Virus record (IMG/VR): IMGVR_UViG_3300025645_000042
Location: 1-64,000 of that record
Origin: a virus
Length of the DNA stretch: 64,000 nucleotides
Direction: 5' to 3' (one strand)
Position numbers and translations under genes: made by a program. Below, piece after piece: positions 3,021 to 41,403 of this stretch (position 1 is the stretch's first letter; each line of letters begins with the position of its first letter). Below the pieces are notes generated by a model. That model saw only the letters and a list, made by a program, of their open reading frames with translations, was not told where the DNA came from and made no database searches.

Positions 3021-3201
3021 TATAACAAAGATAAGGAATATATTTCATTCCACCAAATAATTACCAGGGTTTTTTTTCATGCTAGAGAAGCTAAAAGCTG
3101 CTTATCCCGCTAGTGGTGCGGGATACAGGCGAAAATAAATTTGCGAGATAAATAATATTGTTGTATATTTGCATCAATGTTTAATTAAAACCTAATATAT
3201 T

Positions 3202-4650
3202 ATGAAATGTAAGTATTGTGAAAACGAAGCCACGGTTAAAGATTATAGAACGTGGGATGGACAAACAGGTAAAGAACTTGTTTGTAATGATTGCTTTGGA
3301 ATTACCAATGATAGTTTATTGGATAGGAAAGCTGAAATAAATGAAGTTAAAGAAGAGTTATTCAATTCAGGGTTGGATAATTTAGCTGAAGAGTTTTTAG
3401 AAAAAGGGTGGGGAGATATGTGGACGACCATTAATAGTGAAATGGATGAGTATAAACAATACATGATAAATGAGTTTGAATCTCAAACAGGTCATGAACC
3501 ACATAAAGATACTCTTGAGAAGTGGGATGAAATTATTTTATCTAAAATAAATAAGTTAATTAAAAAGTCGATATAAATTATGGCAAATTGTAAATCAGGA
3601 TTAGGGTTAGGATTAGTAAAGTTTGAATTAAGAAACAGGGAAGACATCGAGAGTAAGTTATATAGTATTATAGCTGTTGATTGTGATTTAAGTGAGAATG
3701 AGGATTACTTTAGGGAAGATACATTAGAGTTGGGGTATGAATCAGAGGCTCATAGATTGGTAGCCGAAGCTGTTAAGGATAAAGACCTAACGGAAGTAAA
3801 AGTCTTTGAGGAAGTCTTTGAGGAAGTTTTTAGTGCTATAAGTGGACAGGAATATTTTGATGATTGTGATTATAAGGTTGAAGATATGGGTTCTGGTATT
3901 GTTATGGTGGCTTATGCATATGGTGGTAATTATAGTTGGTAGGATATGAAAGCTAAAGATATAATAAAATTATTACAAGATAATCCAGAGGCAGATTTAA
4001 TTTTCTGGGATGGTGAAGATAACCATGATATTAATAATATTGAAGTGGATGGCATTAATGGTGTGGAGATAGTTATAAATATTTAAAAATGCTAACTATA
4101 GTATGTTGTGGGTACAGGGAATATGTTTTATCTTTGTACCCATAACATTAAAACATATATTATGGAAATTTTAAGTAGACAAGAAGTTATTGACCAATTA
4201 GTAAATGATGAGACTGATACAATATCCCAGATGATATTTCAGAATGATTATACCTACATTGATGCTATAATGCGAAGTGGTGTTGGTGGTATTGAGGATT
4301 TATGTAATGAAGATTTGGTACAGAGATATTATGAAAGATTTGATGAAACAATTAAAATAGGATAAGATATGAAATTATATGTAATAGAGTACATTGGTGA
4401 TGTGGATTCATCAATAGAGGGAATAACCAATAATCCAGAGTTATGGCTTAGACAGCATAATGCTTATAGGGTTGCTGATGGTGAGATGCCAGAGTTGGAA
4501 GATGACTTTAATTTTTTGGAGTTTGATTATCAGGAGCGCACCCAGAGCAATACTGATGATTATTCATTATATATGTGCAATGATTGTCATGTGTTGGTTC
4601 CAGTGGTCCATACCAGAGATGGTGATGATTATTGTGATATGTGTATTTGA
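3202..4650 (+). CDS. four small early hypothetical proteins (3202-3576, 3580-3942, 4162-4365, 4369-4650)
   Basis: Acidic ORFs downstream of promoters at about 3145 and 4110; 4108 start corrected to ATG 4162 because the upstream part is promoter. Confidence 0.75.
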
Positions 4651-4666
4651 ATTAAATGTTAAATTA

Positions 4667-4698
4667 TTTGGTAGTTATATAATAAAGCCTTATATTTG
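4667..4698 (+). promoter_or_regulatory. representative Bacteroidota sigma70-type early promoter (-33 TTTG, -7 TATATTTG)
   Basis: TTTG at 4667-4670 and TATATTTG at 4691-4698, 20 nt spacer. Confidence 0.9.
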
Positions 4699-4718
4699 TA
4701 TCAGATAATCAAAACAAC

Positions 4719-5150
4719 ATGAGAACAGTATATCAAAAGACAGCCGATAACAAAACCATTCAACGATTAGCGAAGCACGTTAGAACAGATGGTGGAAACT
4801 TCAAGGGAGTATGTGTATCGGCTTGTCTATCTTATTTCGGCATACAGCCAGACCAATATAAGTATACATGGTCCAAGCGAGTTGGGAATAATCACCATGC
4901 AATTTTAAGAAGATTTGGGTGGGCAGTTAGAAGTCGTAAGTCAACTTTATTGAAGGGTACGAAGACTGTAGGAAGTGTACGTAGAGCGATAGCGGCATAT
5001 GAAGATTACACGCCAGACATGATGTATATGGTTCATGTATCGGCTCATGTATTATTGCTTAACAGCAAAGGAGAAACGGTGGTTGACACATCACCTAGAA
5101 AGGTAGACCGTAGAAGAGTATTGAATGTTGTGGCAATATTTAAGTCATAA
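4719..5150 (+). CDS. basic protein with possible papain-like (Cys-His-Asp) peptidase fold
   Basis: CVSACL ... HVLLLN ... VVDT in C-H-D order. Confidence 0.4.
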   Translation: MRTVYQKTADNKTIQRLAKHVRTDGGNFKGVCVSACLSYFGIQPDQYKYTWSKRVGNNHHAILRRFGWAVRSRKSTLLKGTKTVGSVRRAIAAYEDYTPDMMYMVHVSAHVLLLNSKGETVVDTSPRKVDRRRVLNVVAIFKS

Positions 5151-5191
5151 TATTTGGTAGTTATATAATAATTTATTATATTTGTAACATT

Positions 5192-5545
5192 ATGGGACGA
5201 CATACAGGTGAGCGTAATAAAGGTAGAAGATATCATGATGGTTTTCATCCATCAAATAGTAGTAATAAAAAATTCTCTGAAAGGACATATAATACAAAAA
5301 ATTATATTAAAAAAGATAAAAGTAATAAAATCATATATCAAGTTTCATCAGATGGTAAAATAGTTAGGAAATGGAAAAACATATACGAAATTTCTGAAGT
5401 ATTAAAATCTTATCCTGATAAACTAAAGCAATATATTGATAAAGAAAAATTAATTGGAGGTTGTTTATTAGTAATGATGATTAATTATAAAACTACAATT
5501 GATTATGTTAAATTAATAAAATATATTAAATCAAAAACAAGATAA
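5192..5545 (+). CDS. NUMOD1-like DNA-binding domain protein
   Basis: KIIYQVSSDGKIVRKWKNIYEISEVL matches the NUMOD1 pattern. Confidence 0.55.
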   Translation: MGRHTGERNKGRRYHDGFHPSNSSNKKFSERTYNTKNYIKKDKSNKIIYQVSSDGKIVRKWKNIYEISEVLKSYPDKLKQYIDKEKLIGGCLLVMMINYKTTIDYVKLIKYIKSKTR

Positions 5546-5547
5546 CT

Positions 5548-7073
5548 ATGGATTTTACACCACAGGCACAGATAGAGCAAAAGGTAATTGATATTCATTT
5601 TCCTACGCTAAAGAAACATTACAATTCAATGATGGGAAACTTTCAATTTTCAAAGAGAGAGTTGGAGATTAACATTGTAGCCATTACAAGATGGATGGAT
5701 ATGTTTAATGAGTATAGTATTATATGTCAAAAGCATGAAGAGTATAATGGTAAAGAATTTTTCTTAACAGATTTCTTTCAATAATTAGGATATTAAATAA
5801 TAATCTCTTATATTTGTATCATCAATGTTTAAAACCAAATAATATGTCAGCAAAAATTTACAGTGCACCAAAGAGTATTAAGAAACCAGATTACGATTGG
5901 AACAAAGGTCGTGATAATTGGAGAGAAGAAGAGCAACGTTATATCAATGAGATTAAGGCTCATAATAAGAGCATGGGATATAACGGTAAGAACATGGGTG
6001 AAATAATAAAATTTCAGGTTGCCGATGGTTATGCCGAGTATATGGTATTGCAGATGCGACCATTATCTTTAATCCATTTGGATATTATGGATGGTTACGA
6101 ATTCCATTATGCTCACCTAATGACAGCTAAGGAAGTCAATGACCAACTTAAGCGTCAGAGAGCTATGAATGAAATTTTCAGAAAATCTAATACAGCCACA
6201 CCTGATGAAGTTGTTGGAGTATTAGGTAAGGTAGGAGTTGAAACTACCAATATGTCAAAGCAAGAAATTGGTTCATTTGATACCACAACAATTGGTAATA
6301 GTCATTTTCATGTAAAATGGGATGGTAAGACATATATGATACCACCATTTTCAGGTAAGGTTTATGGGGAAAATTCACATAACGTATTTAAATTTTTAGT
6401 TAACAATTATAAGATATAAAACTATGATTTTAGGTAAAGTAACACACGCATATTACAATTGGGAAGTAACCGTAAATGACGGTACGATATTATTCAAGTG
6501 TAATTTAAGACCACCAGAAGGTAGTGGCATCCTGAAAATGGCAAGGGAGTATGATATACCTAAGACAGCCAGAGAGATTACATTTGAAGGTAGTTATATC
6601 AGGATTGATGATGGTAAACAGCTTATTGAATTTAAACTGGAAGGTGAGAGCTGTATTGTTGGTGATGTCTGGGAAGACGGTGAATGTATTGATTCAATTG
6701 CCATGTATGATTTCTGGGAAGATTATGTTTCTCAAGATTAAATGTTAAAATATTTGGTAGTTATATAATAAAGTGTTATATTTGTAATGTAATCAAAACA
6801 ACAGAAATTATGGCCAGAAAAAAAGTTTATATTGTAAAGTCAGGAAGTCTTCATAAGACTGAGAGAAGATATTGGTTAACACCAAGTTACTTCACCAGTA
6901 AGAAGGGTGCATTAGCAAGAGCTAAAAACATCTTAGAAGTCAACAGAGCTACCAACATTGTAGAGCATAAAACTCATGGTGAGTTTGAGTTAAGATGGGT
7001 TGATTATGTAGGTGAGGAAGGCAAGTATGATGGTAGGATTATTGTTGAATGGGCTTACTTAGAAACATATTAA
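5548..7073 (+). CDS. four early hypothetical proteins (5548-5784, 5844-6419, 6424-6741, 6810-7073)
   Basis: ORFs behind promoters at about 5790 and 6755; 5814 start corrected to ATG 5844. Confidence 0.75.
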
Positions 7074-36876: not shown

Positions 36877-37410
36877 ATGGAATTAAAAGACATGATTTGG
36901 AAGAGGGTACACCACGGTGATATCAAGGAACCATTAGTTGATTATTTAGAAAAAATAATCGATGAGCAACACGAAATAGGTAATAAACTTAAAATCTGTG
37001 TTGGTACGGATTCACAAAAAAATGGTAAAGGGTTTAAATACGCAACTGCTATTATAATTGAAATGAAATCCCCCGTTAATATGGGTGGTGGTAATATTGT
37101 TTATAAAGGTATTGGGGCTAAAGTAATTTCTGGTGTTTTCACTGAAAAACGAAAACCTACTATAAGAGAAAGGATGTTAAAAGAAGTTCAAATGTCTATT
37201 AATGTTTGTTTTCATATACTTGATTTAGTTGAATTATATGATATTGACATGGAAATCCATGCTGATGTTAATCCTAACCCAATGTGGGCATCTAATGTTG
37301 CTCTTACAGAGGTTGTAGGTTTCTGTAAAGGTATGAACTTTACATATAAAATTAAGCCCGACGCATATGCCGCAAGTTCGGGAGCCGACAGGCTCTGTAA
37401 TGGAGGATAA
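36877..37410 (+). CDS. YkuK/DUF458 RNase H-like protein
   Basis: VGTDSQ, EVQMS, EIHADVN, AAS.GAD acidic residues. Confidence 0.8.
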   Translation: MELKDMIWKRVHHGDIKEPLVDYLEKIIDEQHEIGNKLKICVGTDSQKNGKGFKYATAIIIEMKSPVNMGGGNIVYKGIGAKVISGVFTEKRKPTIRERMLKEVQMSINVCFHILDLVELYDIDMEIHADVNPNPMWASNVALTEVVGFCKGMNFTYKIKPDAYAASSGADRLCNGG

Positions 37411-37501
37411 TCATAAAAAGCACCCAATGGGTGCTTTTTTATTCCCAATTTTAAGGTAAATCAAATTAATTTTTGTATATTTGTAATAATATAAGAAACA
37501 T

Positions 37502-37708
37502 ATGAATATAAAGATTTCAAAGGGTACTGCTTGTGGTTCTGGTTATGGTTCTGGTAGAGGTAATGGTTCTGGTTATGGTAATGGTTCTGGTACTGCTTCT
37601 GGTTCTGGTTATGGTTGTGGTAATGGTAATGGTAATGGTTGGGGTGATGGTTATGGTAATGGTAGAGGTTCTGGTAATGGTAGAGGTTATGGTTATGGTA
37701 TAGGTTAA
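37502..37708 (+). CDS. glycine-rich (GX)n peptide 1 (68 aa)
   Basis: MNIKISKG plus GX repeats; TATATTTG promoter at about 37476-37483. Confidence 0.7.
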   Translation: MNIKISKGTACGSGYGSGRGNGSGYGNGSGTASGSGYGCGNGNGNGWGDGYGNGRGSGNGRGYGYGIG

Positions 37709-37720
37709 AAAATAAAACAT

Positions 37721-37840
37721 ATGAATATAAAGATTTCAAGAGGTTATGGTAGAGGTTCTGGTTATGGTTCTGGTTCTGGTACTGGTACTGGTTGGGGTGA
37801 TGGTTCTTGTGGTTATGGTTATGGTGATGGTAATGGTTAA
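37721..37840 (+). CDS. glycine-rich (GX)n peptide 2 (39 aa; not in the ORF track)
   Basis: MNIKISRGYGRGSGYGSGSGTGTGWGDGSCGYGYGDGNG. Confidence 0.7.
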   Translation: MNIKISRGYGRGSGYGSGSGTGTGWGDGSCGYGYGDGNG

Positions 37841-37852
37841 AAAATAAAACAT

Positions 37853-38107
37853 ATGAATATAAAGATTTCAAGAGGTGAGGGTAATGGTGATGGTGGTAAT
37901 GGTTGGGGTGATGGTGATGGTGATGGTTCTGGTAATGGTTATGGTGGTTATGGTTATGGTTATGGTAATGGTAATGGTTCTGGTTCTGGTGATGGTTCTG
38001 GTTCTGGTTGGGGTGATGGTAATGGTAATGGTAATGGTTATGGTAGAGGTTCTGGTGATGGTAATGGTTCTGGTGATGGTTCTGGTAATGGTTCTGGTAT
38101 AGGTTAA
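37853..38107 (+). CDS. glycine-rich (GX)n peptide 3 (84 aa)
   Basis: MNIKISRG leader and GX repeats. Confidence 0.7.
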   Translation: MNIKISRGEGNGDGGNGWGDGDGDGSGNGYGGYGYGYGNGNGSGSGDGSGSGWGDGNGNGNGYGRGSGDGNGSGDGSGNGSGIG

Positions 38108-38119
38108 AAAATAAAACAT

Positions 38120-38374
38120 ATGAATATAAAGATTTCAAGAGGTAATGGTAATGGTTCTGGTTATGGTTATGGTGCTGGTTCTGGTGATGGTTCTGGTTCT
38201 GGTTGGGGTGATGGTAATGGTTTTGGTTCTTGTGGTTATGGTTATGGTAGAGGTTCTGGTTATGGTGATGGTTCTGGTAATGGTAATGGTTCTGGTTCTG
38301 GTACTGGTTGGGGTAGAGGTGTTGGTGGTTATGGTAATGGTGATGGTAGAGGTTATGGTGATGGTAATGGTTAA
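38120..38374 (+). CDS. glycine-rich (GX)n peptide 4 (84 aa)
   Basis: MNIKISRG leader and GX repeats. Confidence 0.7.
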   Translation: MNIKISRGNGNGSGYGYGAGSGDGSGSGWGDGNGFGSCGYGYGRGSGYGDGSGNGNGSGSGTGWGRGVGGYGNGDGRGYGDGNG

Positions 38375-38386
38375 AAAATAAAACAT

Positions 38387-38677
38387 ATGAATATAAAGAT
38401 TTCAAGAGGTAATGGTTCTGGTTATGGTTATGGTTATGGTAATGGTGTTAGTTCTGGTTCTGGTGATGGTTCTGGTTCTGGTTCTGGTGGTTATGGTTAT
38501 GGTAGAGGTTATGGTAGAGGTTCTGGTTATGGTTATGGTAATGGTTCTGGTTATGGTAATGGTGATGGTAATGGTGGTAATGGTTGGGGTGATGGTTATG
38601 GTTATGGTTATGGTTATGGTAATGGTGATGGTTCTGGTAATGGTGATGGTGGTGGTAATGGTTATGGTAATGGTTAA
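38387..38677 (+). CDS. glycine-rich (GX)n peptide 5 (96 aa)
   Basis: MNIKISRG leader and GX repeats. Confidence 0.7.
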   Translation: MNIKISRGNGSGYGYGYGNGVSSGSGDGSGSGSGGYGYGRGYGRGSGYGYGNGSGYGNGDGNGGNGWGDGYGYGYGYGNGDGSGNGDGGGNGYGNG

Positions 38678-38740: not shown

Positions 38741-38953
38741 ATGACAGATAAAAACACAAAAGTAATTAAAATTAACGAGTCAAAACTTGTTGATATGATT
38801 AACGATATTGTTGAAGCAACTATAGTCGAAAGAAATTTAGTTCCAGCTGAAACCAAAAAAGTTTCTAAACCTATTAAGAAAAGAGTAACTGAATCTCAGT
38901 TAAGAGCTTTACAAGCTAAGGGAGCTAAAATCAACAGTATTAAAAAAATATAA
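38741..38953 (+). CDS. small late protein, possibly head-internal
   Basis: TATTTAT motif at 38717; KVIKINESKLVDMINDIVE N-terminus. Confidence 0.6.
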   Translation: MTDKNTKVIKINESKLVDMINDIVEATIVERNLVPAETKKVSKPIKKRVTESQLRALQAKGAKINSIKKI

Positions 38954-39036
38954 TCTAATAGATTATAATAATTAAAACCGTCTCTTCAGATGGTTTTTTT
39001 TATTTACTTATTTTAAAATTGTTTTATCTTTTTTTC

Positions 39037-39813: not shown

Positions 39814-40966
39814 TTTCCTCCTTCAAATCTAAATATTGTTGCACACCTATTACATCTATGAAACTCGGTCCATGTGTAAGTATCACCCCAATCCGATTGA
39901 AATAATTTCCAATTATAATATCTTGGCCACTTAGAATTATTTACTATGTAAACATCAGAATCATTGAAGGGTTCTCTACATTTAGGACAATCTCCATATA
40001 GTCCTTTAGATTCAATCGATTCTTCTAATAAATCATCAGGTGCTGGCTCTTTATTTGGTGCGTATGCTTCAAAACCATTCATTATTTATATTTTTCAAGA
40101 ATAGCTAAAACTAATTTAAGAGGCACAGTTTTTCTCCATGGATTAGTTTCAGGGTAATCTTCATTTACCATATATATTTGTTCTAAAAATTCTATATCTT
40201 TTTTAATGTCCATTATATAAATTTTTTAAGTATGTTAAACCATTTATCCATAATTTCTTGGTAGGTATCACTATCCAAATTGTTCCAAACATCATCAAAA
40301 CCACTTCTATCAGTTAAATCGCTAACAATTTCATCGAAGGCATGATAAATATCTTTGTTTGATTTTCTATCAGATGGTGGAACATCTAGATATCTACATT
40401 GATTTATCTCATCCAAAAAATCATTGAAACGTCTTTTAACACACTCTATAACAGTTTCATCTTCATTTTCACGTAAATCTTCACCATCCCATAAAACATG
40501 TTCACCAAATAGAATAGCTTCATAATACCCATTGGTTTCATATTTAAATCCATATAGGTCATCACATTTATCGTTGAAATCGTAATTGATTAATTCTAGT
40601 TCTTTAAGAATTTCTTGCGTTAACATATTAATCTGCTATTAAAACTAAATTATAATCTCTAACGACTTTCCCTAGAATAACTTTTACTTTATCAATTATA
40701 TCATCGATTTGTGTTCCATCGTTTTTACCAGTCATGAAAAATCTTTCCCATAACCAACCTCTAAGTTCACTAAGGTTATCAAAATCACTAATAATTTTTT
40801 TCTGTTTCTTAGGGTTACTAAGTAAAAAATTTGAATAGTTAGAAATGTTAACACTAGGTTGTAATTCAACATAGCTGTATTTTAAGTTGGGTTCATATTC
40901 TGTCTTTACCCATACTTCAACTTCAAATAATGTTTTATTGTCTTTATCTCTTAAGTAAAATATCAT
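39810..40966 (-). CDS. three hypothetical proteins (39810-40082 with CxxC pairs, 40213-40626, 40628-40966)
   Basis: Operonic ORFs. Confidence 0.7.
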
Positions 40967-41403
40967 TCTTCTTCTAAAAATTTATCTTGATGTTTCATAA
41001 AATTCAATAATAATTTGATTATATTTTCAGCACCAGATGGATTAGCACTATGTACTGACCACAGTGGTAATTCTTTATTATAATCTAAACAATAATCAAC
41101 TAACCATTTGGCCGCATCCATTCCAGTTTTCTCTTGGAAGTCTTGTTCTTTGGACCAATCATTATAATCACCATATCTCTCTTCTGGAGCGTAGTGTTCA
41201 TCGGCTAAGTCATGGTCAAACGAAATCTTATGTGGTAATCCGTTGTGAATTATCCATTGTTCGAATTCTTCAAAGGTTTTAACCCAAATTACTACATCCA
41301 TATTCATTCTATCGGCAACAAATTCAGGGCAGAATTTATCTAAGAAAGAATTATATTTTGGACTACGATAATCATCGAGCCATAATAGCGTTTTAATCTT
41401 CAT
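40963..41403 (-). CDS. cyclic-phosphate-processing receiver-like domain protein
   Basis: LWLDDYRSP, ISFDHDL, TGMDAAKWL, HSANPSGAENI. Confidence 0.75.
   Translation of the reverse strand: MKIKTLLWLDDYRSPKYNSFLDKFCPEFVADRMNMDVVIWVKTFEEFEQWIIHNGLPHKISFDHDLADEHYAPEERYGDYNDWSKEQDFQEKTGMDAAKWLVDYCLDYNKELPLWSVHSANPSGAENIIKLLLNFMKHQDKFLEEE

Follow-up and report, generated by a model that had tools for sequence, protein, structure and literature searches.

A tandem array of five (Gly-X)n micro-protein genes in a marine Bacteroidota phage and its probable place in a wider phage gene family

Results

A five-gene (Gly-X)n array

Positions 37502 to 38677 of a 64,000-nucleotide stretch of viral DNA (positions 1 to 64,000 of IMG/VR record IMGVR_UViG_3300025645_000042; hereafter the window) hold a tandem array of five small genes, each encoding a short head, MNIKIS(K/R)G, followed by an almost pure repeat of glycine and a second, variable residue, (Gly-X)n. 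The DNA comes from part of the genome of a large phage of marine Bacteroidota; the complete record comprises 119,101 bp with 30.7% G+C and was estimated to be 33% complete. It is very likely that the units are a real, translated gene family of this kind, and the array is best explained as a mobile offshoot, expanded in copy number, of a (Gly-X)n family that is widespread in phages and usually adjoins a small Sm-like barrel protein. For this explanation as a whole, in which a solid identity is weighed against a weak mechanism, we estimate a probability of roughly 0.5.

All five open reading frames (ORFs) lie on the forward strand and share one reading frame. Unit 1 (37502-37708, 68 aa) carries the head MNIKISKG in front of its Gly-X body and has a net charge of +4, and unit 2 (37721-37840, 39 aa) has the head MNIKISRG before a body of the same kind. 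Unit 3 (37853-38107, 84 aa) is acidic, with a net charge of -6 and two GWGDG motifs, unit 4 (38120-38374, 84 aa) has a net charge of 0, and unit 5 (38387-38677) is 96 aa long; net charge within the array thus runs from +4 to -6. The coordinates and translations agree with the five ORFs, MNIKIS(R/K)G starts and Gly-X bodies of the initial annotation, which had also claimed a GWGDG motif in each unit and near-universal use of GGT for glycine. The motif was present in all five units, and GGT accounted for 165 of the 165 glycine codons in the bodies, compared to 65% in the long ORFs of the record. Serine was written as TCT in 38 of 39 cases (26% in the long ORFs), and tyrosine (TAT, 36/36), asparagine (AAT, 35/35) and aspartate (GAT, 21/21) used one codon each. 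Strict Gly-X alternation made up 89-95% of the unit bodies.

The four internal linkers (37706-37744, 37838-37876, 38105-38143 and 38372-38410, forward strand) were identical across 39 nt, which comprise the stop codon TAA, the A-rich 12 nt AAAATAAAACAT, and ATG with the leader codons. The conservation of the linker had been described correctly, while its length, given as about 38 nt, was measured as 39 nt. A 24-nt leader pattern had five matches in the window and none in 100 shuffles. Across the whole 119,101-bp record there was no further match to this pattern beyond the five, and no second tract like the array was found.

The units are conserved as proteins

A repeat of the form (GGT NNN)n leaves several reading frames open, and an open frame alone therefore proves nothing. 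The opposite strand of the array holds a 314-aa ORF rich in His, Asn and Gln (37461-38405, reverse strand), which was rejected as a gene. Read in antisense, (GGT NNN)n contains only NAC and CNN codons, and because these can never be stops the ORF is spurious, an automatic by-product of the repeat. It was 468 aa long in a second phage with a similar array (phage B, see below) and was broken into pieces of at most 147 aa in the metagenomic relative L133, in which the repeat is less pure.

When viral contigs were scanned for the exact leader, one further phage was returned, phage B (loci L006, L007 and L008), which carries six units; the three loci come from three samples and are 100% and 99.96% identical where they overlap. 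A degenerate-leader scan of metagenomes added relatives from TARA Oceans (L129, L133, L134, L139, L140, L143 and L144). The units of the window, phage B and the TARA relatives formed a comparison set of 39 units from at least five phage lineages. All 39 units start with ATG, and all 37 complete units end with TAA. The consensus of the 39 heads was M-N-[I/V]-K-[I/D/V/N]-S-[R/K/S/N/I]-G, and the residues N2, K4, S6 and G8 were written with different synonymous codons (AAT 33 and AAC 4; AAG 28 and AAA 11; TCA 34 and TCG 5; GGT 33, GGA 5 and GGC 1, respectively). As this variation is confined to third codon positions, it indicates selection on the peptide. The view that the units are separate, selected peptides and not a plain slippage repeat was thereby strengthened: starts and stops were kept in the relatives, and punctuation and head persisted through synonymous change across the 39 units.

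The bodies behaved in the same manner. In the TARA arrays about 77% of glycine codons were GGT and the rest GGA and GGC, and serine was written as TCT, AGT, TCA and AGC; glycine content was nevertheless 35-47% despite this codon mixing, and 35-51% across the relatives overall. The Chlorobiaceae phage CV-1-33 encodes the same kind of body with GGC. Since glycine is kept while its codons vary, both among the TARA relatives and in CV-1-33, the conserved entity is the protein and not a GGTNNT motif in the DNA or RNA. A read-through polyprotein was also considered and rejected, as TAA is an ordinary stop here and as a 4-nt spacer at one TARA junction and a 13-nt spacer in the locus L150 are out of frame.

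An origin of the array as an assembly artefact, or as a repeat that expands selfishly and has no function, is highly improbable. The sequence is of low complexity and prone to slippage, the array is dispensable in four relatives, and the record of the window stems from a single assembly, all of which would fit such an origin. These points are countered by the six-unit array of phage B, which is identical in assemblies from three samples, by the conservation of starts, stops and head across diverged lineages, and by the constrained composition of the family bodies, from which Pro, Met, Gln and Leu are almost absent.

Codon uniformity as a product of slippage

Tandem Repeats Finder reported periods of 6, 12, 18, 27 and 33 nt in the array. 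The window and phage B share a one-codon alphabet, which includes GAG for glutamate (10/10, vs. 17% in the genome) and ATA for isoleucine, and 342 of their 344 glycine codons are GGT. The retention of GAG, which is disfavoured in the genome, makes simple optimisation towards preferred codons unlikely. An economical interpretation is a single origin for every type of hexamer, followed by spread via slippage and unequal exchange, with the diversity of the bodies consisting of reshuffled hexamers; one codon per amino acid is then the result of six-base slippage. The signature of this process, one codon per residue within a lineage and different codons between lineages, was seen in the window (GGT), the TARA relatives (mixed) and CV-1-33 (GGC). 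The all-GGT/TCT/TAT coding in the window is a lineage-specific slippage product and not a DNA signal.

The extreme codon monotony of the window and phage B, the six-base periodicity of the G/T-rich strand and the occurrence of an Sm-like, potentially RNA-binding partner in relatives could also speak for a function in nucleic acid or translation, in which (GGU NNU)n would serve as an RNA platform or structure, or as a sink for tRNA-Gly or ribosomes. We consider this very unlikely, as the relatives vary their codons and keep glycine, head and punctuation, CV-1-33 uses GGC, and the head varies synonymously, with a periodicity of three. Furthermore, no tRNA genes were found in the 119-kb record. 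The tRNA-Gly sink that had been among the initial proposals could not be maintained in view of the mixed glycine codons in relatives, the GGC codons of CV-1-33 and this lack of tRNA genes. A diversity-generating retroelement, suggested by the variation at codon positions 1 and 2, was rejected as well: Arg, Trp, Glu and Ile are written with non-NNT codons, codons starting with C are avoided, and no template repeat was found (reverse transcriptase was not searched for).

A wider phage family next to DUF6948

In phage B a sigma-factor gene is followed by the six MNIKIS units and then by a gene for a DUF6948 protein (PF22253, E 1.7e-20). In L150, which like phage B falls into one MNIKIS/MEVIS group with the window, two or three tandem units begin with a variant head, MEVISNG, and a DUF6948 gene lies ∼0.8 kb away. 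A blind DNA-pattern scan with (GGTNNT)x8 returned mostly microsatellites; the heterogeneous Gly-[Y/S/N/D] loci among its matches (L035, L048, L060, L087 and L115) adjoin a DUF6948 homologue in five out of five cases. All four cultured phages that were opened after a search for DUF6948 contained a Gly-X ORF directly behind the DUF6948 gene. In Ralstonia phage NK-7 this ORF (XCO36015, behind XCO36016) is annotated as 'fibroin heavy chain-like protein', and in Pectobacterium phage Pappous it encodes 53 aa (CDS0032, behind CDS0033). In Iodobacter phage PhiPLPE an unannotated Gly-X ORF (MSRLVNNKNGDGSGYG..., L151 ∼1175-1410) is located between gp84, the DUF6948 homologue, and gp83. Gene 25 of Chlorobiaceae phage CV-1-33 (L154 1786-2031) is annotated as MAMAMALAMA..., which is an alternative frame of a GGC-coded Gly-X ORF, and the annotation is probably in the wrong frame. 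Altogether the pairing with DUF6948 was found at 11 loci other than the window. The array is placed in this family because its bodies are Gly-X with X mostly S, Y, N or D behind a short head, as in NK-7, Pappous and PhiPLPE.

The AlphaFold2 model of DUF6948 had a predicted local distance difference test score (pLDDT) of 93.8 and a predicted TM-score of 0.85. Its top Foldseek matches were Sm/LSm and archaeal SmAP chains, with E-values of ∼1e-3 and target-normalised TM-scores up to 0.79. This is modest but uniform support for a predicted Sm-like fold.

Scans of the units against Pfam, PHROGs and NCBIfam gave only sub-threshold compositional matches (TrAA12, a serine-rich protein model and CFAP143), and a word-indexed protein search with unit 5 gave two matches, both of them Gly-X tracts inside other proteins. 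A profile search of 1.84 billion representative proteins resulted in 221 matches at E up to 0.001; of the 15 that were inspected, one was a true family member and the rest were Gly-X tracts within larger proteins. A tblastn search of cultured phages with a TARA unit gave no matches, and the low-complexity filter probably masked the query. In the ESM Atlas, clusters of hundreds of similar small hypothetical proteins from viruses and bacteria were present, and the neighbours included a viral cluster with the KRTAP Pfam family in 16% of its members. A full-text literature search for DUF6948, for phage proteins called 'fibroin heavy chain-like' and for arrays of this kind returned no paper on any of them; the phage (Gly-X)n/DUF6948 module is known from database entries alone.

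A second phage family, with many members, was observed in which a short head and a Gly-X tract are followed by a conserved C-terminal globular domain with the motifs IDGxPTII, GNxAKG, CYxVK and FAHGxTLxEA. Its members are encoded at L087 2552-3118 and L115 1691-2398 (reverse strand), where they adjoin DUF6948, and further include P0002, P0004, P0007, P0009, P0011, P0033 and P0087. This second family had no Pfam match.

The array is an accessory, exchangeable cassette

The relative L129 carries an RNaseH_like gene whose protein is 90% identical to that of the window, followed by the promoter sequence TTTGTATATTTGT and three units; after two unrelated genes, the promoter and a set of three units occur a second time. 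A 109-aa gene, the leucine-rich repeat (LRR) gene and the RNaseH_like gene are retained in four other relatives (L155-L158), and the homologue of the 70-aa ORF that lies downstream of the array is kept in L155 and L157 and the Mom gene in L155. None of the four has a Gly-X unit at the array site, and the leader pattern was unmatched in up to 197 kb of their records. Conservation of the gene neighbourhood thus held for the order of the backbone genes and not for the array. In L155 a different 65-aa gene (2572-2768) occupies the exact array site, and the gap that follows the RNaseH_like gene resembles a hotspot at which small genes are swapped.

Arrays contain five units, six units or up to at least eight, and on one TARA scaffold arrays on three pieces add up to at least 19 units. 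The bodies vary, as does the number of units, and head and punctuation are kept. With the four syntenic relatives lacking the array, this bears out the notion of an expandable cassette. The linker of the window, with its 12-nt spacer between TAA and ATG, is near-identical to that of phage B and unlike the 6-nt spacers of the closer relative L129. The proteins flanking the phage B array had no detectable match in the 119-kb record. As the linker has its nearest counterpart in a phage for which no shared flanking proteins were found, the sequences suggest cassette exchange between phages of one host range.

Next to the TARA array of L133 a 1218-aa, repeat-rich, tail-fibre-like protein is encoded (3099-6755). 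Many partial matches to it, at 38-66% identity, lie in the distal region of the 119-kb record (G000 105500-118000), and these support the kinship of the window phage and L133. Beside the array of L140 (1909-3872) are an R2K-clade ATP-grasp gene (PF18299) and an AAA_33 kinase gene with a weak match to a tRNA-ligase CPD; as seen from this locus, the arrays are located in islands of RNA-repair or protein-modification genes.

Signals and genes bordering the array

A hairpin followed by a U-run (37415-37439, forward strand; 11-bp stem, -14.6 kcal/mol, z -4.6) ends the upstream RNaseH_like gene (36877-37410) and is the left edge of the inserted cassette. Behind it, a putative promoter (37472-37484, forward strand) contains the Bacteroidota-type -7 box TATATTTG at 37476-37483, with 18 nt to the first ATG. 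It aligns with the early-promoter consensus of the window, in which its exact 13-mer occurs a single time, and TTTGTATATTTGT precedes both sub-arrays of L129 in the same way as in the window. The element is probably a host-type (Bacteroidota) promoter, whose activity we infer from its sequence; the initial annotation had likewise named a host-type promoter.

Downstream of the array follows a 70-aa gene (38741-38953, forward strand). No terminator was found between the array and this gene, the next terminator-like site being at 38974-38997, and the gene probably shares the transcript of the array. As a partner of the array it was rejected, since its homologues follow the RNaseH_like gene in array-free relatives, which makes it a backbone gene. 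The flanking genes were those given initially, encoding an LRR protein, an RNaseH_like protein (PF04308) and Mom (PF25680). A functional tie of the array to the Mom, RNase H-like or LRR proteins was not supported and was rejected in view of synteny: these backbone genes cluster in relatives without the array and are therefore bystanders.

Properties and proposed action of the products

The bodies of the family are composed of 43% G, 10% S, 9% D, 8% Y, 7% N, 4% R and 2% W. Tryptophan was present in 31 of 34 aligned units, and Trp-Gly-Asp was enriched, with 33% of the Trp residues preceding Gly-Asp vs. 14% Asp among X residues overall. The GWGDG motif occurred in 9 of the 34 aligned units, and GYG and SGYGS motifs were found throughout the units. 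Disorder is predicted for the products: the AlphaFold2 model of unit 5, run with the family alignment, had a mean pLDDT of 28.3, and the ESM Atlas model had a value of 0.38.

The five ORFs would be read from a single early transcript by the host RNA polymerase. Early transcription is suggested by the promoter match and by the arrays of phage B and L133, both of which follow an early sigma-factor gene at the same short distance. Each unit would be translated separately, probably by termination and reinitiation over the short A-rich linker, and we infer translational coupling across the 6-15-nt gaps. The products would be a mixture of disordered proteins of 39-96 aa, consisting of MNIKISxG and (Gly-X)n with X mostly Ser, Tyr, Asn or Asp and some Arg and Trp. 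Their genes evolve in three modes, namely by six-base slippage, by duplication of whole units, and by gain, loss or exchange of the cassette. Selection is on composition and on the head, not on residue order, and for this reason the proteins most likely act in bulk as multivalent, sticky and flexible chains early in infection. The aromatic and Arg residues would serve as stickers and Gly, Ser, Asn and Asp as spacers. In the favoured version, the chains would bind assemblies of RNA and protein or help to organise them, jointly with the Sm-like protein in phages that have one.

These steps differ in their likelihood. A composition-driven, multivalent or condensate-type action is possible, if well short of probable, and an action linked specifically to RNA or to the Sm-like protein is rather doubtful. 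A more far-reaching and, in our opinion, unlikely proposal is that the early, dosage-amplified, oppositely charged and Tyr/Trp-studded Gly-X chains form a phage-coded phase-separating scaffold in large marine Bacteroidota phages. Joined by an Sm-like ring of the phage or by RNA-binding proteins of the host, such a scaffold would form a compartment of RNA and protein in which transcripts are captured or shielded while the phage takes over the cell, and the cassette would be exchanged between phages as one unit.

Several observations weigh against the explanation of the array as an offshoot of the DUF6948-associated family and against the action proposed for it. No match to PF22253, to the DUF6948 alignment or to an LSM family was found in the 119-kb record, which is ∼33% complete, and no DUF6948 was found in the examined parts of the TARA loci. 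The longest contig listed for the family unit P0003 and for the DUF6948 protein P0154 is 381,124 bp in each case, which suggests that a complete relative carries both; this coincidence is suggestive only. The low predicted confidence of the unit models would also be compatible with cross-beta or other assemblies, the putative promoter is a consensus match only, and the count of five units rests on the short-read assembly of a 1.2-kb repeat.

Relation to known systems

The (Gly-X)n genes of NK-7, Pappous and PhiPLPE resemble those of the window in their short Lys/Ile-rich head, in the near-pure Gly-[Y/S/D/N] body with one codon per residue within a lineage, and in their hypervariable length. 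Phage B has DUF6948 directly behind its MNIKIS array. The window differs from the three phages by its five tandem copies, the fixed MNIKISxG head, the insertion of the cassette between unrelated backbone genes, and the lack of a detected DUF6948 in 119 kb.

Among eukaryotic proteins, Sm/LSm proteins with Gly-dipeptide tails (SmD1, SmD3, SmB and LSm4) likewise combine an Sm fold, which in the phages is found in relatives, with a Gly-rich, Arg/Tyr-studded disordered chain. The [G/S]Y[G/S] low-complexity domains of the FUS/hnRNPA type share the GYG and SGYGS motifs and the predicted disorder. In chains of both types, function follows composition rather than sequence. There is no homology between these systems and the window, in which the repeat is a separate gene and not a tail and is rich in Asp and Asn and often acidic. 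Bombyx fibroin-type (Gly-X)n shares the period-2 Gly-X pattern, and the mammalian high-Gly/Tyr keratin-associated proteins (KRTAP) are also small Gly/Tyr-rich proteins encoded in tandem gene families. Unlike fibroin and KRTAP, the units have polar, charged or aromatic X residues in place of Ala/Ser, have no structure predicted by AlphaFold2, and would act inside an infected bacterium; the likeness is an analogy of composition only.

Multi-copy precursors of ribosomally synthesised and post-translationally modified peptides (RiPPs), such as prochlorosins, the MSDIN family and McbA, likewise occur as many paralogues in which the N-terminal segment is conserved and the rest is hypervariable. The units could accordingly be precursors with a conserved leader and variable Ser/Cys/Thr/Asp-rich cores, modified by a phage or host enzyme such as a microcin B17-like heterocyclase or an ATP-grasp ligase. 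The many tandem copies, the frequency of Gly-Ser, Gly-Cys and Gly-Thr dipeptides and, in L140, the location of the R2K-clade ATP-grasp gene (PF18299, E 3e-38) at ∼0.3 kb from an array are consistent with this. The head, however, is merely 8 aa long, compared to roughly 20 aa or more in leaders of thiazole/oxazole-modified microcins, and bodies of 30-95 aa are long for RiPP cores. No match to YcaO (PF02624), the cyclodehydratase that recognises such leaders and is encoded close to them, was found in the record, while control genomes gave matches; a YcaO gene was likewise missing next to the related arrays. No R2K ATP-grasp match was found in the record, in a search without positive control, or in the other array contexts. 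Neither was there a recurring enzyme, protease, exporter or other maturase beside the arrays in six contexts, and the recurrent neighbour of the wider family is the Sm-like protein and not an enzyme. A RiPP function is thus quite unlikely, and the likeness to microcin B17-type precursors drawn in the initial annotation was not supported.

A conserved head is also present in the internal proteins of phage T4, where it comprises a capsid-targeting sequence that is cleaved by the prohead protease, and where expression accompanies that of head genes. By analogy, the 8-aa head could be a capsid-targeting or cleavage signal and the bodies anti-defence cargo that is packaged in the virion and injected. 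The short conserved N-terminus, the hypervariable bodies of tandem paralogues and the presence or absence of the array among relatives would agree with this. The context does not: the promoter is host-type and early-looking, and the arrays of phage B and L133 stand directly behind an early sigma-factor gene in its operon and not in a head module. The short heads of other members of the Gly-X family are quite unlike this one, and a protease motif is not evident. We regard packaging as very improbable and retain the offshoot of the DUF6948-associated family as the best explanation.

Small low-complexity genes are often missed or misframed by gene callers, as exemplified by CV-1-33 gene 25 and the PhiPLPE copy. 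Gly-X genes nevertheless recur in very different phages, are selected and are mobile as cassettes, and in one group they have been amplified to copy numbers between 5 and at least 19. If the proposed action is true, phages would have a novel type of takeover tool, whose function depends on composition and frequently goes together with an Sm-like protein, and which would also offer a tractable bacterial model for low-complexity protein biology. The window contributes a MNIKIS subgroup with a fixed head, a comparison of insertion and absence, evidence for cassette exchange, and a case without a nearby Sm-like partner. It also corrects the picture of this region in that the neighbours are bystanders, the all-GGT coding is a slippage product and the antisense ORF is spurious.

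Other elements of the window

A terminator hairpin that overlaps a Bacteroidota promoter, with TTTG in the loop and a T-run followed by TATCTTTG, was observed four times on the reverse strand of the window (13066-13150, 13952-14035, 15953-16035 and 18606-18690). The element is 81-89% identical in phage B (L008 7035-7126), where it precedes the sigma-factor gene. Its presence in both phages points to common early regulatory elements, though no shared flanking proteins were found. Further downstream of the array, a gene at 40963-41403 (reverse strand) encodes a 146-aa protein that matches cREC_REC (PF20274, E 7e-20), a cyclic-phosphate-processing receiver domain. The cREC_REC family is associated with RNA repair.

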